From a virus (taxonomy: Duplodnaviria > Heunggongvirae > Uroviricota > Caudoviricetes): 64,000 bases of DNA. Below are positions 769 through 47,655 of the stretch, piece after piece. Made by a program: the position numbers and the translations under genes. Under the pieces are notes generated by a model that had not been told where the DNA came from, made no database searches, and was given only the letters and a program-made list of their open reading frames with translations. Each line of letters opens with the position of its first letter. Within the stretch, counting starts at the first letter, position 1. Location: IMG/VR virus record IMGVR_UViG_3300032265_002746; one strand, written 5' to 3'.

Positions 769-2043
769 TTAAGTTCTCTTTATGAATGTGCCTTTCTCAT
801 CTCTAGCTTGGTCTGTACGACTAGTAAGCTTACCTACACGCTCTTGGTACTTCTGTCTACCTAGCTCCTCTCCATTACGTTCTATGAACCATTCTAGGGT
901 ATAGCGACCCTTGGCTTTTTCCTTCATCAATTGTTTAGATTCAGGGGACATAGGGATTCCTTTGTTATTAGCAACCCTACCCTTCATACTATCTGATAAC
1001 TTTTTTATATACGCAGCATAAGCTTCCGGTTCATCATCCTGATCAATCGGAGAGCCTCCACCTTGTGTCTTTAATGTTCTATTATATCCATTCTTGAAGC
1101 TATCAAAAAAGTTTATCCACCTAAGCTCTTTTTTGATAGCTTCAGATTTATCATCAGCTAAATCTATAACCTCAGCTTTCATGTTATCCCAACCGTATTT
1201 CTGTACAGCATGGTATAATCCTACAGTAGCCGACCTTTCAGATACTTTTTTATGCTGTGACATCCTGTGATAAAAATTTACAGTTCTTCCAATATAACAT
1301 TTACCAGACGGAGATGTTATCTTATAGATAAAATGCCTACCTTCCTTAAGCAAGGAGTCATAGTCATAGGTGAAATAATCAACACCTTCTTTAAATACTT
1401 TCAACTCTTTCTTTTTAGAAAATTGGCCTTTTTCTTTTTTAGCTACAGGAGTCTTAGTTTTAGGTTTCTTGTAATTAACTAAGCCGTTTTCTGAGTAATA
1501 CACCTCTCTAGATATTTCTTTTGTCTTTTTTGAAAGAATCTCTTCCATACCTGTAGCTTCTCTGAATTCATCCATAGTCATACCATGCTTCTGTATGTGT
1601 GTATTTCTGATAGCTTTAAAATACTTCATGCAAATAGGGCATTGAATTCTGTTGTCAGGGGATTCTGCGAGCTCTTTTTGCCTATTTAAGATTAACAACT
1701 GGGTATTAAATAAATGCTTTTCACTAGGGTATTGCTCTAAATAGTCTTTTATCTCTGTCTTATGATGATTTGTAATGTGCCCTGTAAGCATCCCACTTTT
1801 ATTAGTTGCATCTTTGAATACTTTGTTGCATATTTTACAATAGCATCTTGGGACATCTTTGTAAGGATTGTCTATTATATCATAGTAATCTAGACAATTT
1901 TCAAACTTTATACCTAACTTAGTTAAGTATTGCTTTAACCCCATGTTTACACTCCCTTCTGTGTACTTAAGTTCATTTCCGTCAATTTTACATACGGCTA
2001 GTTTTTCCCAATTCTCTACTCCCGGCTTATCTTTTGTTTTCAT
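769..2043 (-). CDS. GIY-YIG homing endonuclease (Seg/I-Tev-like) with N-terminal C2H2-like zinc fingers
   Basis: Central motif FIYKITSPSGKCYIGRT..R..H matches GIY-YIG. N-terminal CxxC..HxxxH repeats (CKICNKVF..HITNHH; CPICMKYF..HIQKH). C-terminal NUMOD-like GRVANNKG. Confidence 0.75.
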   Translation of the reverse strand: MKTKDKPGVENWEKLAVCKIDGNELKYTEGSVNMGLKQYLTKLGIKFENCLDYYDIIDNPYKDVPRCYCKICNKVFKDATNKSGMLTGHITNHHKTEIKDYLEQYPSEKHLFNTQLLILNRQKELAESPDNRIQCPICMKYFKAIRNTHIQKHGMTMDEFREATGMEEILSKKTKEISREVYYSENGLVNYKKPKTKTPVAKKEKGQFSKKKELKVFKEGVDYFTYDYDSLLKEGRHFIYKITSPSGKCYIGRTVNFYHRMSQHKKVSERSATVGLYHAVQKYGWDNMKAEVIDLADDKSEAIKKELRWINFFDSFKNGYNRTLKTQGGGSPIDQDDEPEAYAAYIKKLSDSMKGRVANNKGIPMSPESKQLMKEKAKGRYTLEWFIERNGEELGRQKYQERVGKLTSRTDQARDEKGTFIKRT

Positions 2044-2265: not shown

Positions 2266-3948
2266 CTAGAACGTGTTGAAATCTGCAACTAAAATTTTTC
2301 CAAAAAATTCCTGCCTCAGAATTAGCTTTGCATAACGGGTCATTAATCCCTTACTAAGCGCAAATGTCTTAGGATCGTACACAAGTGGAGTAGAAATCAA
2401 TGGAATGTATGGAGCAAATACCCCACCGCTATCCAAGTAATTAGCTCCCTTGAAGCCCATGATGATAGCATTCTCTTGCATATAGGCGTTTACAAGTATT
2501 TTGAATTTACCATTCAATTTACCAGCTTCTTTACTACCGAATGCATATTCCATTTTAGAACCGTCAGTTCCAGCAGCGTAACCAGCGATTGACTCGATGA
2601 TTGCAGCAACTTTTGGAGATACCATTGCAACGTTAGCTTCACCTCTTTGAGTTTTAGCGTGGATTGCACGTGATACTTTTTGCATTTTAGTACCCAAAGT
2701 TTGGAACCAGTCTTGTTGGCTATTGTAATAACCACCTGCAGCAGCACCTACTTGAGAGAATGTGTTAGTACTAGAGTTGAATATTGTGTTGTTAACTGCT
2801 GACCAAACCTCTACAGTTTGAACTGCTGCTAAATCAATCATATCAATCAATTCTAAGTCAATTTCACGAGAAATGTACTCACTCAACAAACTTGTAGCTT
2901 CAGCTTCGATATCAATGCTTTGGAAAGCGTTGTAATCTTGTTGAGCTTCTTGAGTGTATGAGTATTTCAACTTACGAGTCTTGGCAGTGATACTTACACT
3001 TGTAGGTGCGATATCAATTTCAGGAATTGAATTACTACCTGTCAATGGAGTGTTAGGAGTGTCTTCGAAGTCACCACGGAAGTTACCGTTAGTTTGTACT
3101 GAGTAGTAAGAAACTACACTACCTGTAGGAGTAGTTGTACCAGATTGAACTGAGATACTACCTGTTACTAGGATACTTAATTGGTCAAAAGTACTATTGT
3201 AAGAAGTAAACTCAGGGTAGATTGTAGCTTCAGAAACTTGACCTAAAGAACCTGAGAATACGAATGATCTTACTGCAGTTGCATCAAAGTTAGTAAGGAT
3301 AGCAGATGCACTAGCAATAGTTATTTTACGTAGACCGTTAGCAGCTACTGATGCAGATACGTTAGCATTGTAGTTAGTGTCTGCGTAAGAAGCTGTTGTT
3401 ACTGTCATTGATTGTGAAGGGATAGTTGCGATGTACTCATTGATTGAGAAACCGAACTTACCAGCACCATACAAACCACCAAATGGATCAACACCTGGAG
3501 TGTTAGTAGTACCGTATACGCTTTGACCTAAGTTAAAACGGCTACCGGCTGTACCACCATTGATGTTAGGTTGTTGGTTGTTGTATTGGAAGTCTAGGTA
3601 GAATACAAGACCGTAAGGCATGCTCATTGGTTGTGTACTCAAGAATTCTTTTGCAGAAATCTCAGCAAATACTTTACGAACCATTGGCAAAACGATACCT
3701 GCCCATTGTTCACCAGCTCCTGGAGTGAAGTTAGCTCCACCTTTGTTGGTTGTTTGTTCTTCTACAAGGATTTGCTTGTTTTGGTTCTCAAGCAAAAGAG
3801 CCATGTTTCTTTTTTCATATGGGTGTTGCTTCATAGCTGTACCGTCTAATAGACCGGTAGGTGCCCATTTTTGTTCTAATCTTGAAAGGACTTGCATTTT
3901 GTCCTCCATGTTTCTAGATGATTCTAGTAATTTTGAGATTGTACTCAT
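2266..3948 (-). CDS. Major capsid protein (T4 gp23-like)
   Basis: C-terminal block ILVNAYMQENAIIMGFKGANYLDSGGVFAPYIPLISTPLVYDPKTFALSKGLMTRYA parallels T4 gp23 YIDQYA..YFTVGYKG..DAGIYYAPYVAL..DPKNF..MGFKTRYG. 560 aa. Followed by a terminator. Confidence 0.85.
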   Translation of the reverse strand: MSTISKLLESSRNMEDKMQVLSRLEQKWAPTGLLDGTAMKQHPYEKRNMALLLENQNKQILVEEQTTNKGGANFTPGAGEQWAGIVLPMVRKVFAEISAKEFLSTQPMSMPYGLVFYLDFQYNNQQPNINGGTAGSRFNLGQSVYGTTNTPGVDPFGGLYGAGKFGFSINEYIATIPSQSMTVTTASYADTNYNANVSASVAANGLRKITIASASAILTNFDATAVRSFVFSGSLGQVSEATIYPEFTSYNSTFDQLSILVTGSISVQSGTTTPTGSVVSYYSVQTNGNFRGDFEDTPNTPLTGSNSIPEIDIAPTSVSITAKTRKLKYSYTQEAQQDYNAFQSIDIEAEATSLLSEYISREIDLELIDMIDLAAVQTVEVWSAVNNTIFNSSTNTFSQVGAAAGGYYNSQQDWFQTLGTKMQKVSRAIHAKTQRGEANVAMVSPKVAAIIESIAGYAAGTDGSKMEYAFGSKEAGKLNGKFKILVNAYMQENAIIMGFKGANYLDSGGVFAPYIPLISTPLVYDPKTFALSKGLMTRYAKLILRQEFFGKILVADFNTF

Positions 3949-5406: not shown

Positions 5407-6021
5407 CTATTTTTTATCTAATCTACAAGGGCAAAAGTTGCTATTAGCACAGATAATCCCATGTATTATATCGTCAATCTTACTGTATTTATTTGCAAGT
5501 ATGGTTGCACCTTCATTCAATGAAAGTGTAGAACCTTGAGTGGATTCAAAAGAAACTGCATCAAAACACAGCATCTCTAAATCATCCTGAACCATTATGG
5601 CCTCATTTGTTTCCATTACGCTTCCCTGAGCCCTAGAACTAATCCCAAAAGGGATTTTCTTCATAGCTAGTTCTCTAAGTATTTTGCCAGAAGGTGTGTC
5701 TAGTATCTCTACGTCTCCGTATACTTCGTCACCTTCCCAGTGCATCTCGGTAATTACATGTGATACATTTTTAAGTTCAACCACCATTTGACTACAATGG
5801 TCTAGCTCGCCTAGTGCTCTTCTGGTTTTTACGAATTCTTCGTTGTATTTTGATAATACACGCTCAAGTACAGTTCTTGGATAGATTCTTCCGTTTCTAT
5901 TTTTTGCATTAGCCCTTTGAAGCAATATATGCCTAAATACAATTGGAGCATTAGGTAAGGATGCAGCTTCGTTTAACTGGTAATCGCTAAGGGTGACTGG
6001 GAAATATTCGGTAAGTATCAT
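5407..6021 (-). CDS. Prohead core protease (T4 gp21-like, peptidase U9)
   Basis: NRNGRIYPRTVLERV..ALGELDH aligns with T4 gp21 NRNKRLYPKRILEKAV..ALGELNHP. Position next to scaffold and capsid genes agrees. Confidence 0.8.
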   Translation of the reverse strand: MILTEYFPVTLSDYQLNEAASLPNAPIVFRHILLQRANAKNRNGRIYPRTVLERVLSKYNEEFVKTRRALGELDHCSQMVVELKNVSHVITEMHWEGDEVYGDVEILDTPSGKILRELAMKKIPFGISSRAQGSVMETNEAIMVQDDLEMLCFDAVSFESTQGSTLSLNEGATILANKYSKIDDIIHGIICANSNFCPCRLDKK

Positions 6022-9000
6022 TAGATTCTGTATTTTGCTTTTAAGTCTTCTAAAGCCTGTTGTAACTCCTCTTTATGTTTACAATTAGGTTGTGATAATT
6101 TATATTTAACAAAGGCAACTGCAATCTTATGCTCTTTTTTACCTGGATTAAAATAGGTATTTTGTAAGTATTCTGTGAATGGAGTTATTCCAGTCTTAGG
6201 CACGCACTTTTTATAAATATCATTTAATGTTTCAAGTATGTTCTGTTGGTTAGGGGTGAAAGAAGGTTTTTCTGATTCAAAAACCTCTTTGGTTTTACGT
6301 TTAACAGGCTCTACATTACCATCTCCATCTATATAAGTACGGTCATCGTCTGGAACTTGTACCGGATTAAAGATTTGAGCTCTTACATCATACGGAGCAC
6401 ATCCTAGTGCTTTTGCATATTTGTTGTAGAGGTCTATTCCAGGTTGTCCCATTTGTCTGATTAACTGATCAATCTTTACTAGTCTTTCTGAGTCTATTCT
6501 GTTTGTGTATACAGAAGTGTGGTCAGTGTAGTTTTGGTTATCAGCCGGGGTATTGTTTCTTAGTTCTCTTTCTAAATCGTCTTTATCCACTAGTCTTCCT
6601 TGTGGATATGGTACGAACATACCTAGAGAAGGAGTGTAGAGGTCTTCTAGGAGTCTTTGTTTCAATATCTCAACTACAAACTGCTCTTTTAGCCCTTTGG
6701 TTATTTTGATTTTCTTTAGCTTTTTTACTAAATTGTCTATACTACCTTCATTCTCTAAGTTAATTATCACCGGGAATGCTTTTACATTAGCTTTTGCTGT
6801 ATCCTTTAGCTTATTTATGGTACTAGCTAATAGACTATCTTTCTTCTTTATTTCTTTATTATAGGCTAGCTTTACTGCAGGGTCTACCTTTATTATAATT
6901 TTATTTCTGATTAAATTACCCTCTTCATTTTTTTCTTCAGGAATTATAATAGATTCAACTGGTTTAGCTAGTGCTTTCATGGTAGTAGCTACATACCTAG
7001 CTGGCTTGCCATAAGGAATTAGTTCTTCCTTCTCACCTCCGGTAAAGTCAAGTTCTCCTTGCTTAGCAGCTACTTTTTCTCCAGACTTTTTAACAGGCGT
7101 CTTACTACTCTTCTCCTTTTCTGTCTTAGCTTTAGCTCCTTTTCCTCCTTCTTCTCCTGCTGCTTGAGTGAGTTTTTTACCTGTTTTTGTATTTGTCTCT
7201 GGTTCATTTTTTGTATTTACTGGCTCTGTTGATTTTACTCTAGGTGTACCTTTTCTTGCTAATTCAAGCTTTTCTTTACTATTTAATTCGTCCCAACTCC
7301 TCTCTGTAACTCCTTTTCTTCCTAATTCTAGTTTTTGCATTAAGGTTAATTCAGAAAAATCTTTAGAGGTATCTTTAGGAGATAATTCAATTGGTTTAGA
7401 AGTATTTGAGCTATTGAATCTATTCAATAATTCTTTTGCTCTTTTATCTGCCAGTTTACTAATTTCCAAATCAGACATACCATCTGTTGCTTTTGGTGCC
7501 TGTGTTCTTACAAATTCAAGTTTATCTTTTAGAGGTAAGTCCTTGAACTCAGTTGGGTTGTTTATGATGAAAGGTACGTCTGCTGGTGATTTTTCTTTTT
7601 CTTTAGGCTTTTCTTCAGGAGTTGTTATGTTGGGATTAAGCTCTATTGTATTACTACTTTTTGTTAATTCTCGGGTTCCCTCTGGTTCTTCTTCTTTTTC
7701 TTCTTCCCCTTTAGTGCCTGTTAGATTAAGCACTATTTCATCACTACTTTTTGTTGGTTCTGTACTGCCACCTTCTTCATTATCCTCTTGATCTCTTTCT
7801 GGTTCATTACTAACACTATCTTCTTCTGTTTCTGGTGCAGGCTTCATTAAATTATAAAAGTCATTTAAAGTTGCATATCTAGAATCGTTATTTTTTGCAA
7901 ATTTAAAAGTTCCTTTAGCTGCAAAATAAAGTACCCCCAATGATGATAATAAAGCCGCTACTGCCGCTGCATTTTGACCTGCGCTATGATGCACAACATG
8001 TTTTACTGCATGCGCTGCTTGTTTAATAGTATCACCATGTTGTGTTACATGTGTTGCTGCATTACCTGCTAATTTTGCTACTGCGTTTGCTATCTTTTCT
8101 GTGGTAGCTGGTGGTAGTTTAACTGAGAATAAACCTTTGTTTCCAAAAGTCCCAGTAGATTTAGCAAATACATCTCCCATCTTACCTCCATGAGAAATTA
8201 AGTCGGTAAGTTTATCGGCTTGTTGATCTACAGATCCTGCACCGTTATTGGTGAATAGTTTTTTGGTTACTTCAAGACCTTTCTCGTAATTACCACCACC
8301 TACTTTTTCTATGGCAGATTTAAGGTTATTAACGCTTTGATTTTGGTTTAAGCTTATACCTGTCATCTTTTGCAAGATTTGGGTAAAGCCATCAGCTGCG
8401 GTTACAGCTACATTTTCATTCAGAGATTCATTAAAGGCTTTATAAGTACTCGCTAATTCGGAGTCTTTTAGAGTTTTTACGTACAGCTTAATACCATCTA
8501 TTAGCTTATTAGCTAAAATAGGGTCCATATAGCCTTGTTCACTTGAGTCTAAAGTAGCAGCATGCTTTATAGAATAGTACGTATCATATATAAATTCACA
8601 ACCTTGGTTAAACTTTTCAATTGATTCCCCGTTAGGAAATTCTGGATCTATTTTATTTAAAGCTGACTCTAACTTATCTAATTCATCATTAACAGCTTGG
8701 TCAGATATACTATTCAGCTTATCTTCTAAAGCTTTTCTTTCTTTTGATTTAGGCTTGTATTTATGTAGCGATGCAGAAAGTGATTTTAATTTACTCCAGG
8801 CACCTTCATTAAGTTGATTATCGGATAAATTTTTTTTTTTGAAGTCCTCTAGTAATTTGGTCTTTAACTTTTCTATTTTAACCCTATCGGAGTCTTCTTT
8901 AGTATCCTCAGGTTTAGCTGGCTTTACGGGCTTTACCTGGTGATTCTTATCCTTGTAGTTTTCACCCTTGGATATATCAATCATCTTTTTAGATTCCACT

Positions 9001-9440
9001 TCTTTATCTGTAGGGGCATGTTTACCCATTTCAATCTTAGTGTAGTAGATTGCATCCTTCTTCAAGTTAGCTATAGCTTTCTTTTGTGCAGCAAGAATAA
9101 CCTTATCATCGCTAAGGTCTTTTCCTTTTGCCTCATATCTCCATCCTTTTTCGTATTCAAAAGGATTGACTTGTTGAACCTGATGAGCAAAATCATCTGG
9201 TTTGTCTAAATCACTAATGGACTCTTTTAGAATTGACATGAAGTTGAATTCTTTTTCTTCACTTTTATTTACAGTTTCTGTAATGAACCCTCTGTTTTTG
9301 AATATACTTATCACTTCCTCATAAGAATTGAGGTGTGAAAACGTTTTGTTTACGCGTGTATCTTCTTTTGCTTCTTTCAAGAAATCTGCTTTTGAGAACT
9401 CTCCGGCTACTACTTGTCTGTATCTTGTATTGATATCCAT
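6021..9440 (-). CDS. Large K/E-rich virion protein, possible prohead-core or ejection protein
   Basis: 1139-aa ORF with low-complexity charged tracts, one hydrophobic segment (VAALLSSLGVLYFAA), and a location between portal and protease. ATGA overlap with the protease start. Confidence 0.6.
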   Translation of the reverse strand: MDINTRYRQVVAGEFSKADFLKEAKEDTRVNKTFSHLNSYEEVISIFKNRGFITETVNKSEEKEFNFMSILKESISDLDKPDDFAHQVQQVNPFEYEKGWRYEAKGKDLSDDKVILAAQKKAIANLKKDAIYYTKIEMGKHAPTDKEVESKKMIDISKGENYKDKNHQVKPVKPAKPEDTKEDSDRVKIEKLKTKLLEDFKKKNLSDNQLNEGAWSKLKSLSASLHKYKPKSKERKALEDKLNSISDQAVNDELDKLESALNKIDPEFPNGESIEKFNQGCEFIYDTYYSIKHAATLDSSEQGYMDPILANKLIDGIKLYVKTLKDSELASTYKAFNESLNENVAVTAADGFTQILQKMTGISLNQNQSVNNLKSAIEKVGGGNYEKGLEVTKKLFTNNGAGSVDQQADKLTDLISHGGKMGDVFAKSTGTFGNKGLFSVKLPPATTEKIANAVAKLAGNAATHVTQHGDTIKQAAHAVKHVVHHSAGQNAAAVAALLSSLGVLYFAAKGTFKFAKNNDSRYATLNDFYNLMKPAPETEEDSVSNEPERDQEDNEEGGSTEPTKSSDEIVLNLTGTKGEEEKEEEPEGTRELTKSSNTIELNPNITTPEEKPKEKEKSPADVPFIINNPTEFKDLPLKDKLEFVRTQAPKATDGMSDLEISKLADKRAKELLNRFNSSNTSKPIELSPKDTSKDFSELTLMQKLELGRKGVTERSWDELNSKEKLELARKGTPRVKSTEPVNTKNEPETNTKTGKKLTQAAGEEGGKGAKAKTEKEKSSKTPVKKSGEKVAAKQGELDFTGGEKEELIPYGKPARYVATTMKALAKPVESIIIPEEKNEEGNLIRNKIIIKVDPAVKLAYNKEIKKKDSLLASTINKLKDTAKANVKAFPVIINLENEGSIDNLVKKLKKIKITKGLKEQFVVEILKQRLLEDLYTPSLGMFVPYPQGRLVDKDDLERELRNNTPADNQNYTDHTSVYTNRIDSERLVKIDQLIRQMGQPGIDLYNKYAKALGCAPYDVRAQIFNPVQVPDDDRTYIDGDGNVEPVKRKTKEVFESEKPSFTPNQQNILETLNDIYKKCVPKTGITPFTEYLQNTYFNPGKKEHKIAVAFVKYKLSQPNCKHKEELQQALEDLKAKYRI

Positions 9441-9450
9441 TTAATTATTT

Positions 9451-9888
9451 TTAATATGTTGCGCTATAATATTCTAAGGCTACTGGGATTGAGCCTGTAT
9501 ATACATATGCTGATATTGAGGCTATTTTTTCTGTACCGCCCTTCATCCAAGTGTTATTGGATATGTGAGAACTCTGAGGTTGTAGTTGTACTTCGTATGA
9601 ACTTGAAACAGAGCCTGAAATGACTAGATTTAAAGTACCTTGTGTATCTATGTTAGTTAAACGGAGATAAGCCAAGGAAGAGGCTTGTATGTTGCCTGCT
9701 AGAGCCCCTGCCAGTGAACTTGTGAATGCTACTATTTGTACAGGACTGCCAGTAGGTATGTTAAATATTCTATTGTCTACAGAGCCAATACTAATATTAG
9801 TATCTGTTACAGATGAATTTCTGTAATTATTGTTAAGAAAGATATCTTCTGATATATTTACTGTTAGGGTAGCTGGTACACTTGACAT
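9451..9888 (-). CDS. Hypothetical protein
   Basis: 145-aa ORF tightly packed (2-nt gap) with the next gene, between portal and the large virion protein. Confidence 0.5.
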   Translation of the reverse strand: MSSVPATLTVNISEDIFLNNNYRNSSVTDTNISIGSVDNRIFNIPTGSPVQIVAFTSSLAGALAGNIQASSLAYLRLTNIDTQGTLNLVISGSVSSSYEVQLQPQSSHISNNTWMKGGTEKIASISAYVYTGSIPVALEYYSATY

Positions 9889-9890
9889 AA

Positions 9891-10736
9891 TTACTTGGTT
9901 GCTTTATATTCCTTTAATAATTCAAAATAACTAAGTATATTACTAATATCTGCTTCACTGATATTCTTATTGGCCGGTACTTCTTCTATTAGATTTGATA
10001 CTTCTTGAAGTTTCACTTTACGTACTTGGTCTGGTATTTCCTTTATTATCTTTTTTAGCTCAGTTTTGATAGTCTTAACTTGGGTGTTACAGTACTCCTT
10101 TAAACTGTTTGAAGTAGAGATATTGTTGATATACTCCTTCAAAAGATTTTTTTGGCTTTCGTTTAAATCTTCATACCTATCATTGAACTTGTTTAGGGTC
10201 ATTCTGTAAACAAGTGCCCTTGTGCCTTTATCCGATTTAGCAAATTCCTCTATAAAGCCGCTGTCTTGAGGTTCTCTTTTAGAGGTAATGTGCTCAAGGA
10301 TAGTTCCTTTGCATTTAGCATAGGTATCAATGTCTATGTTGACACTTGAGTGCATCTCTAGTAGACTGTATACTGATGCAAAAACAGTGTAATCATCTAC
10401 CTTTGCTTTAAAAAACTCTTCTAAATTGTAATTCTTTTTTATTTCAGCGATTAAGTTGTACTTATCTCGTTTTAACTTGTCTTTAGGTAACTTCTTATAA
10501 GATTCTAAACAAGCATCAATAAGTACCTCTGCTTTTGCATCTGGAAGATTCCTAGCTTTAGTGATAGTATTGTAGATTTGGTATTCTCTGAATATATCAG
10601 TATTGTTGAAATACTCGCGGAGTATGGCAACTGAACTTGAGTCTTCTTTTTTAGTTAGGGTATCTGTTGTGAACTGTCTCACTAACAATTCAAAAAGAAG
10701 TCCCGTATTACGTAGTTTGTTATGCTTAGATGCCAA
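9891..10736 (-). CDS. Hypothetical protein
   Basis: 281-aa ORF preceded by the conserved upstream box. Confidence 0.55.
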   Translation of the reverse strand: MASKHNKLRNTGLLFELLVRQFTTDTLTKKEDSSSVAILREYFNNTDIFREYQIYNTITKARNLPDAKAEVLIDACLESYKKLPKDKLKRDKYNLIAEIKKNYNLEEFFKAKVDDYTVFASVYSLLEMHSSVNIDIDTYAKCKGTILEHITSKREPQDSGFIEEFAKSDKGTRALVYRMTLNKFNDRYEDLNESQKNLLKEYINNISTSNSLKEYCNTQVKTIKTELKKIIKEIPDQVRKVKLQEVSNLIEEVPANKNISEADISNILSYFELLKEYKATK

Positions 10737-10756
10737 GGCTTTAAAGTTTAGCTATT

Positions 10757-10770
10757 ATTAATAAATATCA
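10757..10770 (+). promoter_or_regulatory. ATTAATAAATATCA box upstream of gene start 10736
   Basis: Recurring motif, see findings. Confidence 0.3.
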
Positions 10771-10771
10771 A

Positions 10772-13735
10772 TTAGTCTTTGTCTAACAAATTACCCTCGT
10801 CTAACATAGATAACTCTTTAGGCTCTCCTCCTTCAAACAGTTGGACTTTCTTTCCAGGTTTAATTTTTTCTAAGTCAGACTTCTTCAACCCTTCATTATA
10901 GATACCCTTTCTAGGATTAGGTCTTAGGCTGTCTTTCTTGTACTTATCTCGCATTTCTTTCTTCCCAAAAGGATCCCTTCCAGCAAAAGAACTGTCTGTG
11001 CCGTAAGAAGAAGCGTGTAATACCGGTCTGCCTATGACTTTTTTCTCATCATATCCATCTGGTACGCTTTCTGGGCCTGAAGCATTGTTTTTGTAAATAG
11101 ATGCTAGGTCATGTGGTGTTCCATAAGATACTCCGGATAAAGCTGGGTCATTACCTTCCTGCTCAATCTGAGTGTATCTGAATTTACGTTTAACATCTTC
11201 AGCTATAAGGTCACGCTCACGATTAATCTGGTCTTCACTCATCTGGAATATGTTATCATAAATCCAGTCTGTTGAGATAAAGTTCTTCTCTTGCATCTGA
11301 TTAGCTAAATCAACTTTTTCTTTCAATAAAGCAATACGTTCTTGCTCATGCAAGATAGAAGGGCGAGCAAGTGTTATGTCAAAATTGGCAAGGTCTGAAT
11401 CCTCATACCCTAATAAGGTAAGGTGTACCTGTGCTATTTTTTGTAGTTGAGATACAGTCAATCTTTGGATATACTCTATTTGGCGAGACCAACTCAAGCT
11501 TAATCCAGATAAGGTAGATTTACCATTTAACTCATCAGAATAGTTCAAATAAGCTTTTGGAATCTTTAAAGCAGAGAACATCTTATTGATGAAGTAATTC
11601 ATATCATCCATACCTGTATACTCCAATCCTTTAGCTGTATCAATTCTGGTTAGGTTGTCACCATTACGGACTGGAATATGGAAATCCTCCAATAGGTTCA
11701 TCATATTGAACTTATAGTTGAATTGTCCGGTTTTGTGGTCGAATAGGGGTGTACGCTTTTGATTGGAAATGTGCTTTTGCATCATGGCATCTACCTCATT
11801 TGGAGGAAGATTACCCACATTATAGTAGAACACCCTCTTTTCGGCAGACTTTGTAACACGATGGGTTACCGCAGCATCCTCCATCATGGTATATGCCTTG
11901 AATAATTTACGTCCAGGTTCAAGCCAGGAGTTATGTACTACTATCCCATTAGCAATAAAGTTGTGATTTTCAGACTCCACGTGTATGTCGTAGGTCAATT
12001 CTTTGTCAGACTCTTCTATGGCTGTAATAGGCTCTAAAATAACGTTTTCAATACCTTCTTGTTTATACTTCTTTGTTTGGATTAATTTCCTACCTTCCAT
12101 ATAAAAGCTCAAAAGGTAAGCTTCACTTTTATTATATATTTTATCTCCAAAAACAACAGTTGTCCTCTCTTTTCTTTTACGTATTTTGCCAGATTTTATT
12201 TTTAATCTTTGCAGTAATACTTTCAAATCCTCTAACATTTCTTTGTTAACAAGCTCAACTGTATACCTGTTACAGCCCCATTCATCTATATTGGTACTAC
12301 CGTCAGCATCTACTAATCCTTCTATAAATGCCAGTTGTACGTTTTCAGGCTGCTCATATATCCAAGATGGAAATCTCTTAGTTTTTGCTTTTCCTGTAAA
12401 TCCGTTATTTTTAAGGATAACATTAAGGGCTTTTGAATGACAGAAAGCTTGAGAGCTTATATTTGTATTTGTTATTTTTTTATTATGCTCACCACATATT
12501 TTTCCTGAATACTTTTGTAATATACCTTTGTACTTTTGATTGATGTCATCATGAACACCTTGTGCAAACGCAACGCAAGATTTAGATAACCACCCATCCC
12601 CTAGCATAAAGCCAAATAATCTTGCAAAGTCTTCTTCGTATGTATTTGGTATGTATTCCAATAACTTTTGCCAGCCATTTTTCTTATTTTCATTAGAAAC
12701 ATCTTTATTGATTTTGCTTTCAATATTAGGTTGTTTAAAAGAATAATTGGTAATAGCTACTAGGTCTTTTATGTTAAGTTCTTGTATCTGTTTGTATTTT
12801 AATACTCCGTCCGAAAATACAAGAATGGGGTGTTCTGCACTGCCTTCTATGAAGTTATTTTTAGTTGAAACTTTGTAGATTTCCTTTTCTCCAGAACACA
12901 CTTGCTTCAATACTTTAGTTAATTCATACTTATCTTCCTTGGTATTGTATGACCAAACCTTATCGCCTTCCTGTATTTTATCAATTGTATTTACTCCAAA
13001 TTCTGTCTCAACGTAGGAGTTACCTTTTAGACATCTGCCATATGGTAAAAAGTTACTATCTTTCATCAGCCTAAAATGTGCTATCTCATAGTTTTCATAA
13101 ATCCTATGATTACGGGATTGATTAATTGAGCTTACACCTCCCATGATTGCTCCTGGGTCTTGTATAAACCTGACATATTCCCCATTATTTGCATCTAAAC
13201 CCTCTTCTCTCACCATTTCATAAGGAGACAAGGATTTTACCCCATAAACTCCGAACTGATCTGAAAGACGTAACAAAAGGAAGAAATCTCCATATTTGCA
13301 AAAGGACCTTATCCACATCGGTAAATTGAATTCAACATTCAATACGTTGTAAAAAAGATTATACAATTCATCCTGGATGTTCTCAGAAGAAGACCTTATA
13401 GATAAGATTTCGTTATTCATTTCATTAACCTGTGTAGCTTCCTCACAAAGGATATCTAAGGCCGGTGCCACTAGGGCATCTAAGTCCATTGCTTCATAGT
13501 CTAGGTATAGTTGTGCCCTTGTTATCTGCATCCCATAGCCTATACCCGGTTCTATCAGGGAGCTATTGGAATATAATCTAGTATATCTATTTGCAAGCGT
13601 GTTTTGTTGTAAGTTTCCGAATGCTTGTATACCATTAAAATCGGATACTTTTAAGTATTTACCTCCTGCTCTTTTGATTATGGTGTCAGTAGTAAACTTC
13701 TGTTTTAATTGTGCAAATAGAGCTTTATTAGCCAT
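10772..13735 (-). CDS. Portal protein (T4 gp20-like) interrupted by an in-frame intein
   Basis: Exteins match gp20: MEDAAVTHRVTKSAEKRVFYYNVGNLPPNEVDAMMQKH parallels T4 [37 protein letters not shown], and RNGDNLTRIDTAKG parallels RDGKAVTEVDTLPG. 987 aa, of which about 368 aa are intein. Confidence 0.85.
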   Translation of the reverse strand: MANKALFAQLKQKFTTDTIIKRAGGKYLKVSDFNGIQAFGNLQQNTLANRYTRLYSNSSLIEPGIGYGMQITRAQLYLDYEAMDLDALVAPALDILCEEATQVNEMNNEILSIRSSSENIQDELYNLFYNVLNVEFNLPMWIRSFCKYGDFFLLLRLSDQFGVYGVKSLSPYEMVREEGLDANNGEYVRFIQDPGAIMGGVSSINQSRNHRIYENYEIAHFRLMKDSNFLPYGRCLKGNSYVETEFGVNTIDKIQEGDKVWSYNTKEDKYELTKVLKQVCSGEKEIYKVSTKNNFIEGSAEHPILVFSDGVLKYKQIQELNIKDLVAITNYSFKQPNIESKINKDVSNENKKNGWQKLLEYIPNTYEEDFARLFGFMLGDGWLSKSCVAFAQGVHDDINQKYKGILQKYSGKICGEHNKKITNTNISSQAFCHSKALNVILKNNGFTGKAKTKRFPSWIYEQPENVQLAFIEGLVDADGSTNIDEWGCNRYTVELVNKEMLEDLKVLLQRLKIKSGKIRKRKERTTVVFGDKIYNKSEAYLLSFYMEGRKLIQTKKYKQEGIENVILEPITAIEESDKELTYDIHVESENHNFIANGIVVHNSWLEPGRKLFKAYTMMEDAAVTHRVTKSAEKRVFYYNVGNLPPNEVDAMMQKHISNQKRTPLFDHKTGQFNYKFNMMNLLEDFHIPVRNGDNLTRIDTAKGLEYTGMDDMNYFINKMFSALKIPKAYLNYSDELNGKSTLSGLSLSWSRQIEYIQRLTVSQLQKIAQVHLTLLGYEDSDLANFDITLARPSILHEQERIALLKEKVDLANQMQEKNFISTDWIYDNIFQMSEDQINRERDLIAEDVKRKFRYTQIEQEGNDPALSGVSYGTPHDLASIYKNNASGPESVPDGYDEKKVIGRPVLHASSYGTDSSFAGRDPFGKKEMRDKYKKDSLRPNPRKGIYNEGLKKSDLEKIKPGKKVQLFEGGEPKELSMLDEGNLLDKD
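11930..13033 (-). mobile_element. Intein with LAGLIDADG homing-endonuclease domain inside the portal gene
   Basis: Starts with Cys in R|CLKGNSYVETEFG, has a block-B-like SAEH, two dodecapeptide motifs LFGFMLGDGWLS and AFIEGLVDADGS, and ends VVHN|S. Residues 235-602 of the ORF. Confidence 0.8.
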
Positions 13736-13755
13736 AGTATGTTCTTTTGTATTGT

Positions 13756-13767
13756 TATAAATATAAT
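13756..13767 (+). promoter_or_regulatory. TTATAAATATAA box, 20 nt upstream of the portal start
   Basis: Recurring motif with an exact TATAAATA on the plus strand. Confidence 0.3.
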
Positions 13768-15408
13768 TTAACTACCAAGTACCCATGAATAATCCTCCAT
13801 TTCTCCTGTTACAGGGTTCGGCATTAGGTAATTACTGGCCTTCCTGTTCATACTACTATGGATAACAGTAGCAGGTGTTGTTGATTTTATAGCTCCCAAT
13901 ACAGCTCTTTGCATGTCTGTGCTATTTGCTGCATATGCCAATGCAGTACCTCTCAGATAAGTGCCTATCGCTAATGGAATCAACAAGTCATCATTAGAAC
14001 CTGATTTAGCTGCAGGTTTTGGGCCTTTCCAAACAAATGCCCTCATTTCCGCATAAGTCCTCTTAGACCTTATTTTTATAGATTTTTCTTCTACAGCAAT
14101 CTTGAATGATTGTAGCATCGGTATTCTGGTAGAGGTTGATGTGGTAAATCCAGGAGTCATTTTGTCCTCATCCATATACTTATTAAGGTATTGACTAACA
14201 TTGGTTGTATCACCCTTGAACGACTTATATACATTTCTGTATCCAGAATCGGTAACGTAACTACAGGTAGTGTTACCTATACCTGTATTTTCAGCTATCA
14301 ATAATGCGCTGTTGTATTCAAGGCAGACTGATACCGCAAAGTTGGCTAGTTCTTTAGGTCCCATGTCTCCCATATATTCACCTATTTGATCACCAGTTAG
14401 CAAATCTACTATCTGAATGGTAGAATAGTCTAGTCCATCGCCCCTAGAGGTATCTAGTATAACTGCACAGTTGGTTACTTCTTCTGGAAATTTCCATATC
14501 CAGAATGCATTGTCCCTTCCCCTCATTTGTACCGGTTCTTCTAGGTTGACTTTTACCCAATCTAAATCTTCTGGTTCAAAGTATGTATTACCAGAACTAA
14601 TCATTTCGGCATCACACTCTTGTTTTGCAAGACGTTTACCAAGCTCTTGGTCTTGTCTATCTCTCCAATCTTGTGTATGCTCTGGGTGAACTCTCCAGTC
14701 TAGCTTTATGGGTAGGTATTCATTGTTACCTAGCTCTGCTTCTGAGTATAAATCTGCGAATTTATTCTCTGTACCTTCTGGAGTTGATAATACTATACAC
14801 TTACCTCCTGTCGCTAGTGTTTGCTGAGCTGCTGCATAAGTCTCCTCTGCGTCTTCCACGAATGCAAACTCATCATAAATAAGAAAAGAGGCTGTCTTAC
14901 CTCTAGCGGAGTTCTTAGCTCCGGATATTACCTCAATCTTTGATCCGTTAGATGATACTACTTTCTTTTGGTTTTCTTCTTTGGTAGTTGAATTGGACAA
15001 TTCAATCATCCATTTAGGTAACTCCTCAAAAGCAAACTTAAATTTATCCATTACGGCTTTAGCCATATTGGTAGTTGGAGCCATACAGAGTATTGAAGAG
15101 TCATTCTTGAATAAGAATAGCCACAATGCATATGCTGAAGCTAGTGTGGTTACACCTAGCTGACGGCTTTTAAGGATAATGATGCGGTCTCTGGTGTGCA
15201 TCAGATGTAAAAGCTTTCTTTGGAAAGGGTATAATTGGAATTTACTTCTACCTCCACTTGTGGTCTGAATCCACACATAGGTTAATATGAAGTATTCAGG
15301 GGATTCCATACACTTCTTAAACTCCGATAAAGCTAATTCTTTCAGGTTTACAGGTCTAACTGCCGGTGTATTAGTTGTTTGTGTCGTTTTCTTAGCTGCT
15401 TTTGTCAA
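13768..15408 (-). CDS. Terminase large subunit (T4 gp17-like)
   Basis: YPFQRKLLHLMH..LKSRQLGVTTLASAYALWLF parallels T4 gp17 YQRDMLKIMHD..NLSRQLGKTTVVAIFLAHF. Walker B LIYDEFAFV. C-terminal nuclease-like region. 546 aa. Confidence 0.85.
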   Translation of the reverse strand: MTKAAKKTTQTTNTPAVRPVNLKELALSEFKKCMESPEYFILTYVWIQTTSGGRSKFQLYPFQRKLLHLMHTRDRIIILKSRQLGVTTLASAYALWLFLFKNDSSILCMAPTTNMAKAVMDKFKFAFEELPKWMIELSNSTTKEENQKKVVSSNGSKIEVISGAKNSARGKTASFLIYDEFAFVEDAEETYAAAQQTLATGGKCIVLSTPEGTENKFADLYSEAELGNNEYLPIKLDWRVHPEHTQDWRDRQDQELGKRLAKQECDAEMISSGNTYFEPEDLDWVKVNLEEPVQMRGRDNAFWIWKFPEEVTNCAVILDTSRGDGLDYSTIQIVDLLTGDQIGEYMGDMGPKELANFAVSVCLEYNSALLIAENTGIGNTTCSYVTDSGYRNVYKSFKGDTTNVSQYLNKYMDEDKMTPGFTTSTSTRIPMLQSFKIAVEEKSIKIRSKRTYAEMRAFVWKGPKPAAKSGSNDDLLIPLAIGTYLRGTALAYAANSTDMQRAVLGAIKSTTPATVIHSSMNRKASNYLMPNPVTGEMEDYSWVLGS

Positions 15409-15550
15409 TTGGTTCTTTTTTCTTTTGGTATTTTTCTCTAGCCTTAGCGTCTATTACGGCTTTGTTCCGTGTATAATAACGCTTGGTGGCTTCGTTTTTA
15501 GCTTCTTTTACCTGCTCTTCCGTTGTATATTTTTTAGTCCTTCCCATTAT

Positions 15551-16309
15551 CTACAATTCAAAATTGTTTATATGTTGAAGGGTTCCGTCCTCAATGTAGT
15601 AGCAAGAATGAGCTTCTACTTTTGCTTTTTCTTTACCTTTCTTAGCTACTTTTTTGTTAAACCACTTTTCAGTCCTTTGATCACTGATATTACTGGATAT
15701 CTCTATGTACTGACCTTCAAATTTTCCTTCACGAGCTGCTGCACACTGTTCAAGAAATTCAGATTTATGGTATAAAGTTGAGGCTGTTACTAAACAGCCT
15801 TTTGGTTTCAACTTGTCTTTTAATCTTTGTTGTGTTTCTTTTAAGGTTGTTACAAAGTCTGCATTCTCTATTATAGCTAGATCTATTTCGTCTTCTGGTA
15901 TTTCTTCAGATGGACCTATTATGTACAGCTTAGAGCCATTCTTTAGCTCAATAAAGAATGGTGTTTGTGATTCTATAAGTGCAAAGATAGGTAATTTATT
16001 GAAAGAATACATTAGTAGGTCAATAAATTCTTTGGCTATTATCTTAGTAACACTTGTTACTACTATTTTTGTGTTCGGTCTGAATACCATCATCCAGGCA
16101 GAGTATGCTGTAAGCATGGTAGTTACACCCACTTTTCTGGCAGAGTTGATGAGTAGTTCACTTGTTTTTGGGATTAATCTAGTGATCTGCCATTGGTATT
16201 TTTTAGGGATTATCAATTCAATCCTGTGGCCATAACTCATCACTTTCCATTCATTTAAAAAGAAGTCTTCAAATGATGATGAACGTTTTTCATAAAGGCT
16301 TTGACTCAT
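15551..16309 (-). CDS. Terminase-ATPase-like paralog (N-terminal ATPase domain only)
   Basis: LINSARKVGVTTMLTAYSAWMMVF and LAIIENADFV parallel the Walker A and B regions of the adjacent terminase. No nuclease domain. 252 aa. Confidence 0.6.
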   Translation of the reverse strand: MSQSLYEKRSSSFEDFFLNEWKVMSYGHRIELIIPKKYQWQITRLIPKTSELLINSARKVGVTTMLTAYSAWMMVFRPNTKIVVTSVTKIIAKEFIDLLMYSFNKLPIFALIESQTPFFIELKNGSKLYIIGPSEEIPEDEIDLAIIENADFVTTLKETQQRLKDKLKPKGCLVTASTLYHKSEFLEQCAAAREGKFEGQYIEISSNISDQRTEKWFNKKVAKKGKEKAKVEAHSCYYIEDGTLQHINNFEL

Positions 16310-16923
16310 AACTTTACTTTCCAGTAGGTTCCTACACCGTACACAATCTTACCTGTTATGTCTACCCCTGCTTTTACCTGGAATAATCTGTCAGATTTGG
16401 TCTTGTAGATAAGTCCGGCCTCTGCTGAATTTACTAATGAAGGAAGGTTACCATTAAGTGCTCCTCCTACATACAGTTGATTCTTAGGTATACAAGGTTC
16501 TTTTATGGTTATGGTGTTGGTAATTGTTGGGTATTTGAAATTTAGTATGTATCCTGCTCCTTTTATTTTATTCTTGAATATGGTATCCATGATGTATACC
16601 TTGGAGCTATCAAATTTGATAGAGTCTTTGTATATGTTCTCTGCTAGGAACATATCTCTTAGTGATTCAAATTGAGTTCTTAGTTTACTGTAGTTTGTGT
16701 CTGGTATGAACAGAGTATCCTTTGATTTAACCACATAAGGAATTGTCTTTGTAATAGTTGGACTTGAGCCTTTTATGGTGTCTCTATGAGCCAACCATTG
16801 GGTGTCTCGTACTATTGTTACGGTTGGTCCTGGTATTGTGGTATTTCCACAACGTTGTAGAAGCATAACAAATAGTAAAACTAAGCATATGATGCTTAAT
16901 AGGTTTTGTTTTATGTAATTCAT
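16306..16923 (-). CDS. Secreted or membrane-anchored hypothetical protein
   Basis: N-terminal hydrophobic signal-like segment LLSIICLVLLFVMLLQRCG. ATGA overlap with the downstream gene. Confidence 0.55.
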   Translation of the reverse strand: MNYIKQNLLSIICLVLLFVMLLQRCGNTTIPGPTVTIVRDTQWLAHRDTIKGSSPTITKTIPYVVKSKDTLFIPDTNYSKLRTQFESLRDMFLAENIYKDSIKFDSSKVYIMDTIFKNKIKGAGYILNFKYPTITNTITIKEPCIPKNQLYVGGALNGNLPSLVNSAEAGLIYKTKSDRLFQVKAGVDITGKIVYGVGTYWKVKL

Positions 16924-16952
16924 AATGTTAGAGATAGGGGGAATTACCCTAT

Positions 16953-16978
16953 ACTAATAAATATCAAGATAAATATCA
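16953..16978 (+). promoter_or_regulatory. ACTAATAAATATCA plus partial second copy AGATAAATATCA upstream of gene start 16923
   Basis: Recurring motif, tandem here. Confidence 0.3.
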
Positions 16979-17033
16979 TTAGACTATTTTCCAGACTTTA
17001 GCTTCTCAGTATAGCCTCTCATAAGAGTATTCT

Positions 17034-30880: not shown

Positions 30881-33800
30881 TTATTGTGGTAATAGGTTAT
30901 TGGTTAAGGGTTGAATAATATTTGAGACATTATTTTCTATTGCAGGGTCTAGATATTCAGGTATTAAAACTGCTGATGATACTACACCAAGTTGCTTTTG
31001 TGATTCAATTATTACAGATGTTTCATCTGGCATTAGTCTTATTATTGCAAATGCAGAACTAGTGTCGGATACTACTGGTGCTCTATCTAATGTGGCTTGT
31101 AATTTTCTAGTTACGGTACCACCTACTGTAATTGGTGCAAGAACGCTCTTTACTATATATACTGGGTCCAATACATTTTCTATGGGAGATATTCTAACTA
31201 AATCCCCTTGTTGTATTGTAAATATATCTTCTACTGGTGAGTAGCTTGCTGTTATATACGATGTGAGTGCTCCTGTATTATATTGTGGACTAAATATACT
31301 GTTATTGTATAAAAGAGATGATGTAACATCAAATATCAATGTGTCGTTATAACCTGTAGTATAGCTACTTGATATATAAAACATCGGTGCCCCTGATGCA
31401 ATGCTTTGTGTTACAACTTGTTTAGTTTGACCTCTTGAATCTATTACTTGGAAATAACCACCTTGTGGTATGGTGAAATTTATTTGATTACTTCCTTGAA
31501 AGAAAAGTGATAAATCTAAGAAAAATACCCTGAGTCTTAATTTTTCACCTTGCTGAAGGTGTATTGTCTGGTCTAATTTTTGATTAAAAGTTATATAATT
31601 GCCATTAAGATGATCCCAAATATATATGTTACCTGGATATCCATAAGCTCCATTATCTAGTCCAGAGTAGTCCCCTGAAGGTGCTACAGGTATATTCCAG
31701 TCTCCTAGACTCGTACTAGCTGCATATCCCCAGCTACCCCCAGCATACTTTTCCACTACCCCTATTACTTTAAATGTACCATTACCTCCATCAGGATGAT
31801 TACCTGTATATTGTATAGGGATATATGCAGATACATAATAATCTGATGTTTCTGGAGCAGTAAATACTAATCTGCCTGTTTGGTCATTTGTATCGTATGT
31901 CACGTAACTATTTAGTCCACTAGATATAAATCCTCCTGCAGAGCTAGTGTTTGGTAAATGAAAGTAGCTTAGTTCATAGTAACCCTTTAGATAATCTGTA
32001 CCTGTTGGTTGATATAAAGTTTGTTGATAGTAAGACTCATCATAACCTTTGTATAACCATGTTTGTGGTGTACCATAAGAAGTGTTTATCGTAGGGTACA
32101 TAGAATTAAAATCGGATAATGATCCATATACTTTAGATAATATACCATCTGTTACTTGTTGACCATTAACTATAAGTTGAACAGCATTGCTTGGGGGTTG
32201 TGGCTGTCTTATTGGTACGTACTGTAAGGCAAAAGATAGATTAGTGTCAGCTCCATTAATTGTATGCCAATTAACTGAATAATCCATTACTGCTTTAAAT
32301 CCAACAGATTCTGTATAAGTCTGTACTGGTTTAGTGAATGTAAATGAAAGAGGTTCATTGCTATCCCTGTACACTATAGGTTTAAAAGAATATCCTCCTA
32401 GATATATAGTAGAGGTTCCGTCTATAGAAAATTGATTAGAAGGGCTCAATGGGTTTGTGAGTGAAATAGTTATACTATCCCCTGACTTAAATGTGTTTTG
32501 GACCTCAAATAAATTTTTATTTGCCCGAGTCAATGTTGTAGTTGAACCAGATGCGTCCAAAAGATATTTTATACTAAAGGTTGTTTTATCTAAAAAATTA
32601 CAATTGTTTACACTACCTTGTAAAGAATACCCAAACTTACCCGAATAGGTGTTTATATTAGGAAACGTACCCGATCCTGTGTCTCCTTGTGTATACTTAT
32701 TAAGCTTTTGTACGCTAACCTTACTACCTATATATCTAGGAATACTCCACCTTTTATGATTATACTCACTATCCTGTAAGGCAACAGGTTGTAGTATATT
32801 TGGATTATTTATATCCTGCTTCTTAGATACAGTTGATAAACGGTTGGTATACACATCATTATTAGTTACGTTAAAATCGCTATTTTTGAAAATAGCAGTA
32901 CTAAAGCTTTGTGTATAAGATAGGTAGGGATTGTAATTACGAATCTCATAGTTATCATGTATATCTACATAAGATCCTGAAATATCCCCTGTCATAAAAG
33001 TCATCTCCTCATTGAATTGAGGGTATGATGTACCTGCTTTTATAGTATTATGTCCTACAGATGCGGTATACTGGACCAAGGACATGCTAGGCTGGTGCCT
33101 AGATATTTTGTTACGTTCAAGGATTGGTGACTTAATTGTTACGCCTGTGCTAAGGTTTGTTCTAGCAGGGGTAAAATCACCTATCATTTTGAATAGTGTA
33201 TTATCTATTTGCCCTACTAAATTTATAAAGTCTTTGTAATCATATTTAGATATAAACTTCTGGTAATATTGAGCATTTATTGTGACAATATCTGGATATA
33301 CATTTAAACCTTGATAAGTTGGGTCTCCTATATATTGGTCTAAATCAAGTAAGCTACCATATTGAGATATGATATCTTTGTTTATTTCATTCTGAGGGGA
33401 GAAACTTACTTCAGCAAAGTGGGTATCTCTTGACCTATTTGTATCAGGTGCTTCTATCCTTAAAATAGGACTTAATACATTACTATTAGGGGTGTTATTG
33501 ACTATACGAACTTTCTCTGTAACAGGGCTGTAATAGCCAGCTTGAGGAGTATTTGTGTAGGACAACTCATACTCTGATTGGTAGTTATTCTGATTGGGAA
33601 ATCCTATAAATAAAAGGCTATTGTATGATGAGCTGTATTGTAAGGATTGTGTTGGTAATCCTCCATAACTACTGGTACTGTAATGAGCATAAGTGCCGTA
33701 TAAGGATCCTCCTGATGCTGAATATACACTTCCTGATGTGTAGTATAATTTGAACTGTGGATGTACTGAGCCTACAGATGCAGTTTGATAGTGATTATAG

Positions 33801-45618: not shown

Positions 45619-45648
45619 TCTTCATTAGGATTTTGGTTTTTATTATCT

Positions 45649-46062
45649 TTACTGGTTAGAATCCAGATCTTGTTTCTCAATCTGGAATTTATCAAGGTTT
45701 GCTTGTATTTCTTTCAAGGTTTCGAAGAAGAATTCAACTTCATCGTCAGTCTTGAATGACCCTTTAGCATCAACTTCTCTTATTTTTTGAGATGATACTT
45801 GTATAAGCATATCAATACTAGTTATGTATTTCTCATACAATTCTATAGCAGGTATGTACTCATTTTCTAATTCTTTTATCCTTGAGTCGGCTAAATCAGA
45901 AAGCTCTTTTAGTTCTGAATCATTGTCAGATTCAATCTTAGACAAGTCTTGTTTAAACTTATCTGAAAGGGTTTTATACTGCCGATAAGCAACTGCCCAT
46001 CCAGCCATAGCTAGAAGGGTTAATAGTGCAACTCCGATTTGAGCAAGATTGATTGTAATCAT
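45649..46062 (-). CDS. Membrane-anchored coiled-coil hypothetical protein
   Basis: N-terminal TM helix LAQIGVALLTLLAMAGWAVA. 137 aa. Confidence 0.5.
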   Translation of the reverse strand: MITINLAQIGVALLTLLAMAGWAVAYRQYKTLSDKFKQDLSKIESDNDSELKELSDLADSRIKELENEYIPAIELYEKYITSIDMLIQVSSQKIREVDAKGSFKTDDEVEFFFETLKEIQANLDKFQIEKQDLDSNQ

Positions 46063-46070
46063 TATATAGT

Positions 46071-46733: not shown

Positions 46734-46906
46734 AAATGTAAATTTTAAGTTGTTTCTAAATTAAGTTTTAAATAAAAGGCCTCAGAGTGGACACTCATTG
46801 CCTTATGTAATGCAAAGGTATAACAAATAATTGAATATTTTACAAATAATTTTTTTAGGTTAATTATTCATACTATATTTGCATCATATCTAAAATAGAA
46901 TATAAC
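46734..46906. promoter_or_regulatory. Divergent promoter / strand-switch region
   Basis: AT-rich 170-bp gap between the last minus-strand gene and the first plus-strand gene. Confidence 0.4.
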
Positions 46907-47545: not shown

Positions 47546-47655
47546 TATTACTTTTGCCTTATATTTATTATTAGTACCGTAAGCAGACGGACGAAGGTAA
47601 AAAAATTAAGAGCGTAACATACTTTTAACATAGTAGGAGAGAGATACAAACTACT

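Follow-up and report, generated by a model that had tools for sequence, protein, structure and literature searches.

Identification of the portal intein

The gp20-type portal gene on a stretch of 64,000 nucleotides from a virus of the Caudoviricetes (IMG/VR record IMGVR_UViG_3300032265_002746; the whole stretch analysed is referred to as the window) contains an in-frame insert that was assigned, with a probability of roughly 0.93, as a canonical class 1 intein carrying a two-motif LAGLIDADG homing endonuclease, splicing and cleavage being deduced from conserved residues and from the predicted fold. Judged from its sequence and structural model, the intein is well preserved and probably active, and the virus that hosts it is an uncultured T4-like aquatic myovirus. 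A LAGLIDADG intein in a gp20-like portal gene at positions 11930-13033 had been proposed in an initial annotation of the window, and the same coordinates were recovered here, on the minus strand. The portal had also been described there as about 370 amino acids (aa) longer than its homologues; with 987 aa, the open reading frame (ORF) lies 368 aa above the intein-free homologues, which measure 612-644 aa. The gene is organised as follows.

10772..13735, minus strand: portal precursor ORF, gp20-type, with the intein inside; 987 aa; matches to Portal_T4 and to the PHROG 213 portal family
13034..13735, minus strand: N-extein, portal residues 1-234, ending ...FLPYGR; collinear with intein-free P0004 and L001
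11930..13033, minus strand: assigned intein, 368 aa, portal residues 235-602, from Cys1 to the terminal Asn; delimited by motifs, profiles, a 1104-nt indel relative to L001 and an AlphaFold2 model
12746..13033, minus strand: predicted N-terminal lobe of the splicing (HINT) domain, spanning intein residues ~1-96; contains Cys1 of block A and S65-A-E-H68 of block B; beta strands at residues 7-95 of the AlphaFold2 model; match to the DnaB mini-intein 6frh
12830..12841, minus strand: SAEH, portal residues 299-302
12098..12673, minus strand: predicted LAGLIDADG homing-endonuclease domain, intein residues ~121-312; LAGLIDADG_3 at residues 232-305; alpha/beta region 121-311 in the AlphaFold2 model; fold matches
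12584..12619, minus strand: LAGLIDADG motif 1, LFGFMLGDGWLS, portal residues 373-384, with acidic D146 of the intein (LFGFMLGD146G)
12296..12331, minus strand: LAGLIDADG motif 2, AFIEGLVDADGS, portal residues 469-480, with acidic D244 of the intein (LVDAD244G)
11930..12046, minus strand: predicted C-terminal lobe of the splicing domain, spanning intein residues ~330-368 and containing blocks F and G (TYDIHVESENHNFIANGIVVHN); TIGR01443 intein_Cterm, E 9e-9
10772..11929, minus strand: C-extein, portal residues 603-987 plus stop, beginning at the +1 residue Ser603 (SWLEPG...)

The intein blocks listed in the initial annotation (Cys1, SAEH, two dodecapeptides, and VVHN followed by Ser) were all located at the places given for them. 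The N-terminus of the insert, CLKGNSYVETEFG, corresponds to portal residues 235-247 and starts with Cys235, the position-1 nucleophile, while VVHN|S occupies portal residues 599-603, with Ser603 as the +1 extein residue and SWLEPG, MEDAAV and RVFYYNVGN directly after. In searches with hidden Markov models (HMMs), the intein and LAGLIDADG models scored above their curated cut-offs and far above chance expectation: Pfam Intein_splicing (PF14890) gave 66.5 bits on the isolated insert against 35.8 (E 3e-18), Pfam LAGLIDADG_3 (PF14528) 43.7 bits against 22.5 and NCBIfam TIGR01443 intein_Cterm 35.3 bits against 15.6. Partial NCBIfam matches were obtained to the intein parts of the models for intein-containing RtcB, GyrA, DnaB, IF-2, V-ATPase and RecA. 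A profile of 18 portal inteins run against all six-frame ORFs identified no second intein in the window.

The identity of the surrounding gene was assessed with Pfam Portal_T4 (PF07230), which matched the 987-aa ORF in two stretches (E 6e-57, 194 bits), portal homology being present on both sides of the insert. Removal of the 368 residues in silico produced a 619-aa product with a single collinear match, residues 74-478 aligning to profile positions 2-432/433 (214 bits, E 3.8e-63), and the collinear gap anticipated in the initial annotation was thereby recovered. A phmmer comparison of the portal with the T4 gp20 structures 3ja7 and 6uzc gave E values of about 1e-20. An identical protein is present in a public protein collection (P0001), and public labels of the 987-aa ORF read 'hypothetical protein' or 'intein/homing endonuclease'; in annotation, the mature portal should be given as 619 aa, not 987.

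Empty allele in a near-identical phage

An intein-free homologue of 619 aa (P0004) differs from the extein of the window at 10 of 619 positions (~98% identity). The protein, encoded on metagenomic contig L001, reads FLPYGR|SWLEPG, in full ...NFLPYGRSWLEPGRK..., which is the predicted ligated junction, and the empty site, of the kind that the initial annotation had foreseen in intein-less relatives, falls exactly at R234|S235. In the DNA of L001 the empty site reads ...CCATACGGTAGG|TCTTGGCTTGAACC... and also ...TTTTTACCATACGGTAGG|TCTTGGCTTGAACCTGGACGC....

Gene order in L001 is that of the window, and the two sequences are 96.8% identical over window positions 16990..13035 and 92.5% identical over 11926..7691, ~8.5 kb in all, the sole large difference between them being a clean indel of 1104 nt that comprises the intein. 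With the intein removed, both portal genes are 1860 nt long and 95.9% identical, with the same 10 residues differing in the product. Four silent differences are clustered within -7..+2 nt of the junction (window 13027..13040 and 11925..11929; L001 4355..4365), and the next 150 nt downstream are nearly identical; the cluster may represent co-conversion or drift of the target site. Flanking divergence is mosaic, at ~6% upstream, ~1% over 900 nt downstream and ~14% at the 3' end, and is without a clear symmetric tract.

The window sequence was also found at 100% identity in two more assemblies (L002 and L003, possibly from the same sample), and because these carry the identical sequence a one-off assembly artefact is unlikely. 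This bears on the proposal that the insert is a group I or group II intron with a LAGLIDADG ORF, or an assembly chimera, which we regard as extremely improbable. LAGLIDADG endonucleases are common in group I introns too, and the window is a metagenome assembly. Against both origins, however, the reading frame runs unbroken through the insert and both exteins, HINT blocks flank the endonuclease on either side, no Rfam intron model matched in the region 9000..16500 at E values up to 1, and homologous inteins occupy site 234 in many contigs besides the identical assemblies.

Conserved residues and predicted fold

An alignment was assembled from 18 homologous inteins, all located at portal site 234 and 40-81% identical to the window intein. 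Invariant among them are the splicing positions C1, H68, T347 and D349 (both block F), N358, F359, H367 and N368, residues G141, F142, G145, D146 and G147 of LAGLIDADG motif 1, residues G239, D244 and G245 of motif 2, and Lys280; all listed inteins of site 234 have Ser at +1. The splice-junction residues on which the initial annotation had relied are accordingly not only present on re-examination but conserved throughout this set, and the alignment points to evident purifying selection on the presumed catalytic residues of both the splicing and the endonuclease activity. A class 3 intein, which would lack the position-1 nucleophile and have a Trp-Cys-Thr triplet with a Cys inside block F, was ruled out, Cys1 being present and invariant and block F (TYDIHVE) being without Cys.

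A structural model of the intein calculated with AlphaFold2 on that alignment reached a mean predicted local distance difference test (pLDDT) score of 90.4 and a predicted template modelling (pTM) score of 0.89. In this model, residues 7-95 form an N-lobe rich in beta structure, residues 121-311 a central alpha/beta domain and residues 331-367 a C-lobe of beta structure. The top ranks of a Foldseek search of the model against the PDB were taken by endonuclease-bearing inteins, namely TliVMA (E 1e-19), PI-TkoII, PI-SceI, PI-PfuI and PhoVMA, and lower ranks by mini-inteins, Hedgehog HINT domains and free LAGLIDADG enzymes, with I-DmoI among the fold matches; the Foldseek probability was 1.00 for intein and Hedgehog HINT structures, and the predicted intein structure has the HINT fold. 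Because of the invariant residues, the AlphaFold2 model and the Foldseek ranking, the insert was classified as a class 1 intein whose LAGLIDADG endonuclease is of the single-chain, two-motif type.

Under this classification, the 987-aa precursor would be translated whole, after which the HINT domain would splice through an N-S acyl shift at Cys235, trans-esterification to Ser603, cyclisation of Asn602 with the help of His601, and an O-N shift. The expected products are a 619-aa portal with the junction ...FLPYGR-SWLEPG... and a free intein of 368 aa; splicing would need to come before the portal dodecamer forms, or at least to allow its formation. In a cell infected by both kinds of phage, the released intein or endonuclease would cut a portal allele that lacks the intein, at its R234|S235 codons, and repair from the intein-bearing genome would then introduce the 1104 nt into the cut allele, completing homing. 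Indirect signs of such homing are that phages ~96% identical in DNA differ in having or lacking the intein, and that one site is found in full, mini and empty states.

Insertion site within the portal

The site was placed by alignment of the portal to T4 gp20, for which the published domain limits are residues 70-254 and 378-450 for the wing, 255-278 and 359-377 for the stem, 279-358 for the clip and 451-524 for the crown (PMC4493910). On these limits, R234|S235 lies in the loop where the wing domain ends, and stem helix alpha5 follows within a few residues; T4 gp20 has an extra loop of 25 residues at this point. The C-extein aligns to T4 gp20 residues 263-522 (stem, clip, wing and crown), and its segment MEDAAVTHRVTKSAEKRVFYYNVGN corresponds to the stem helix of T4 gp20 plus the first strand of the clip. 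The initial annotation had put the insertion just N-terminal to the most conserved segment of the portal. The SWLEPG block does adjoin the site and is well conserved, local conservation at site 234 standing at the 86th percentile within the family, but the maxima are found elsewhere, at extein residues ~126-144 and ~431.

Inteins across the portal family

Occupancy of the portal was surveyed in the best 120 clusters of at least ~1,268 homologues, retrieved with a query that contained the intein. Intein-free proteins of 612-644 aa make up 68 of these clusters and proteins with insertions the other 52, at least 40 of the 120 carrying an intein at site 234. The view expressed in the initial annotation that a portal intein is comparatively rare is fair for cultured phages, although portal inteins are documented in actinobacteriophages; among metagenomic proteins this single site is occupied in the proportion just given. 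Inteins at site 234 are present as full-length elements of 364-378 aa, as a partial endonuclease deletion of 341 aa (P0003) and as mini-inteins (P0006, 141 aa; P0012, 159 aa; P0082, 154 aa; L009, 183 aa), and empty alleles occur as well, so that all stages of the homing cycle are represented at this one site.

Inteins occupy at least seven other sites in the portal, at extein positions ~81, ~96-99, 145, 247, 261, 368 and 371, with another at ~259 in the IMG/VR locus L103; the portals concerned, in addition to that locus, are P0002, P0007, P0010, P0013, P0016, P0021, P0046, P0066, P0071 and P0086, and some inteins at these other sites carry HNH-type domains (PF13392) rather than LAGLIDADG. In the T4 alignment, sites 247 and 261 fall in stem helix alpha5 and sites 368 and 371 in the tunnel loop. 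The number of inteins per portal reaches a maximum of three (P0016, P0021 and P0071). Three are also present in LR756508.1, an unannotated GenBank record of 484 kb from an uncultured phage (locus L015, 144284-151024), in which the portal has 1387 aa, its ORF starting at locus position 1477. Sites 234 and 247 of this portal each hold a mini-intein, the one at site 247 being followed by Thr at +1, and site 371 holds an intein of 458 aa. The natural series of full-length, endonuclease-deleted and empty alleles at one site, together with at least seven more sites, makes the family suited to study of the homing cycle in uncultured phages. This multi-site, multi-state load is a useful side result and is not conceptually new.

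The closest cultured relatives, Flavobacterium phage immuto (48.6% identity) and Microcystis phage Mel-JY01 (47%), have intein-free portals, and no DNA near-identical to the window was found in GenBank phages. A scan of metagenome contigs yielded 80 further intein-free alleles (L017-L096), some of them in TARA or 'marine metagenome' records; these are the 80 best-scoring loci and are all intein-free, and the intein-containing protein query is biased in the opposite direction, so that the two samples do not yield a frequency of occupied alleles. Because the 80 alleles come from metagenome contigs, some of them TARA or marine, the portal clade appears widespread and is probably aquatic. In three of the 80 (L020, L021 and one more of L017-L096) the +1 codon, equivalent to window positions 11927..11929, is GCA or GCT and encodes Ala instead of Ser; such alleles may be refractory to productive invasion, because the standard splicing route would be closed to an intein inserted at that position.

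A separate idea, that empty sites resist the endonuclease by way of their Ser codon, arose from the first few loci, which had TCN in occupied and AGT in empty alleles. It was dropped when 68 of the 77 Ser codons of the added empty alleles proved to be TCN, as in 7 of 7 distinct occupied alleles, without a significant partition.

We also considered that the gp20-type portal gene of this clade is an undescribed intein hot spot, with at least eight sites that include the stem helix and the DNA-contacting tunnel loop and with at most three inteins per gene, in which the inteins are non-neutral, either through conditional splicing that would gate the start of head assembly or through endonucleases that would act as weapons excluding the portal alleles of co-infecting relatives. 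This proposal is held as a speculative one and is quite unlikely.

Weighing of the assignment

Several points weigh against the assignment as an active class 1 intein. We infer the splicing activity, the endonuclease activity and the target alike, from sequence and model. The G+C content at third codon positions (GC3) is lower in the intein (0.28) than in the extein (0.36), which is compatible with a foreign origin and is no proof of it. Block B has Ser (SAEH) where Thr is more usual, Ser and Thr alternating at this column in the family. AlphaFold2 gave a poor model for the spliced portal (pLDDT 54), and the structural placement therefore rests mainly on the alignment to T4 gp20; the model does put the site in coil just before a long helix (residues 238-261). 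Pairwise identities of inteins and of their exteins co-vary (Pearson r 0.68, 435 pairs). Finally, no near-identical intein was detected in a distant portal among the sampled intein/extein pairs.

The first and third of these points are those that would favour an insert that does not splice and that has either become a permanent additional domain or turned the portal gene into an inactive pseudogene. All residues for class 1 splicing are nevertheless present and invariant in the family, the ORF of 987 codons is intact, and the insert is kept in at least 40 homologous clusters; moreover, the portal is essential and single-copy, and the insert would break the wing-stem junction of a protein that forms a tight dodecamer (PMC4493910). 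A non-splicing insert is consequently judged highly improbable.

The last two points concern an alternative of greater weight, although we still consider it unlikely, in which splicing is intact and the endonuclease inactive, the intein being a vertically inherited, harmless passenger heading to degeneration. In addition to the co-variation of identities and the lack of an identical intein in a diverged portal, the mean divergence of inteins exceeds that of their own exteins by 5 points, and the endonuclease-deleted mini-inteins at site 234 demonstrate that loss of the endonuclease occurs in the lineage. On the other side, D146, D244 and K280 are invariant in the 18 aligned inteins despite identities of only 40-81%, which points to purifying selection on the active site; presence and absence between phages ~96% identical in DNA requires recent recombination exactly at the site; and in some groups the inteins are 10-13 points more similar than the exteins. 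Some near-identical exteins (94%) hold inteins that are only 74% identical. From this sample, therefore, a long-term association with gain and loss is deduced, and not demonstrably a recent horizontal jump; the sequence comparisons would fit an association of long standing in which gain and loss recurred and some transfer took place. The assignment as a probably active, endonuclease-bearing intein was retained.

Comparison with known systems

The window intein resembles the VMA inteins (TliVMA, 7qsu/7qss; PI-SceI, 1vde), PI-PfuI (1dq3) and PI-TkoII (2cw7) in its split HINT domain, the two-motif LAGLIDADG domain between the lobes, Cys1 and the terminal His-Asn. Structural matches to these solved inteins have E values of 1e-19 to 1e-15 and template modelling (TM) scores of 0.5-0.68, whereas sequence identity is only 13-17%; by sequence alone, the only solved inteins detectable, and these weakly, were VMA (E about 1e-3) and PI-PkoII (2cw7, E 0.0044). 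It differs from them in that its host is a phage portal and theirs a V-ATPase, a ribonucleotide reductase (RNR) or a DNA polymerase; PI-SceI, with 454 aa, is also longer than the 368 aa of the window intein. As a compact Cys1/Ser+1 intein with an unusually well-defined empty site, the window intein is a candidate for a new LAGLIDADG specificity.

Portal inteins are known from actinobacteriophages, including six in cluster C1 mycobacteriophages (Kelley et al., 2016, PMC5050341), and in a 2025 survey the actinobacteriophage portal inteins are described as polyphyletic, in five groups (bioRxiv 10.1101/2025.01.02.630785). The present element belongs to this already known kind: the actinobacteriophage inteins are likewise LAGLIDADG-bearing and located in phage portal genes, and their independent groups parallel the multiple sites described here. 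Unlike it, they are found in phages of Actinobacteria, and their portals are classified under InterPro IPR009279, which may be the same family as PF07230 or another. Among 50,697 GenBank phage records, the best match of the intein was to a tape-measure intein of a Gordonia phage (26.6% identity), and no portal of a cultured phage with this intein was found, the sole record bearing it being the metagenomic LR756508.1. For aquatic or Bacteroidota-type phages, a full-text literature search of incomplete coverage returned no description of an intein in a gp20-type portal. With the present data the T4-type portal of marine and freshwater myoviruses joins the packaging proteins colonised by inteins, and current concepts are unchanged by any of these results.

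Inteins of this kind are also found in the packaging gene next to that of the portal, the gene for the large terminase subunit (TerL) of phages, where host gene and insertion site differ; the TerL of the window (546 aa) is without an intein. Many inteins in IMG/VR that end in NFIANG..HN are followed by T-R-W..D sequences, which may be TerL-like. The free-standing homing endonuclease genes of T4-like phages, such as segD beside gene 23, offer a further parallel, as they cut the sensitive allele of a co-infecting relative and are followed by gene conversion. In contrast to the portal element, they sit intergenically and involve no splicing, whereas an element inside a coding sequence would be harmless only by way of protein splicing.

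Other features of the window

The gene for TerL lies directly upstream of the portal gene, and the TerL-portal order is shared with L001, L002 and Flavobacterium phage immuto.

13768..15408, minus strand: large terminase subunit gene; PHROG terminase large subunit, E 3e-38

An ORF of 424 aa at 769..2043 (minus strand) adjoins the gp23-like capsid gene. Its product contains a domain of the GIY-YIG nuclease family (Pfam E 6.9e-11) and weakly matches the ROS/MucR zinc finger; by analogy with segD beside gene 23 in T4, the ORF is likely a free-standing homing endonuclease. The gp23-like major capsid protein itself (2266..3948, minus strand, 560 aa) matches Pfam Gp23 over 467 residues for only 350 profile positions, a difference that points to an insertion of a segment or domain; this protein gave no intein signal.

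Two very large ORFs had no Pfam match at E <= 0.001, one of 1139 aa at 6021..9440 (minus strand), which lies downstream of the portal gene by three genes and has conserved counterparts in both L001 and L002, and one of 1796 aa at 30881..36271 (minus strand). A weak FMN-riboswitch-like Rfam match at 16080..16203 (minus strand; 20 bits, gathering score 66, E 0.42) is most likely due to chance, and no tRNA genes were detected in the whole window. Long ORFs (>=250 aa) lie on the minus strand up to position 45618 and on the plus strand from 47710, which suggests a divergent module boundary at ~45600..47700.

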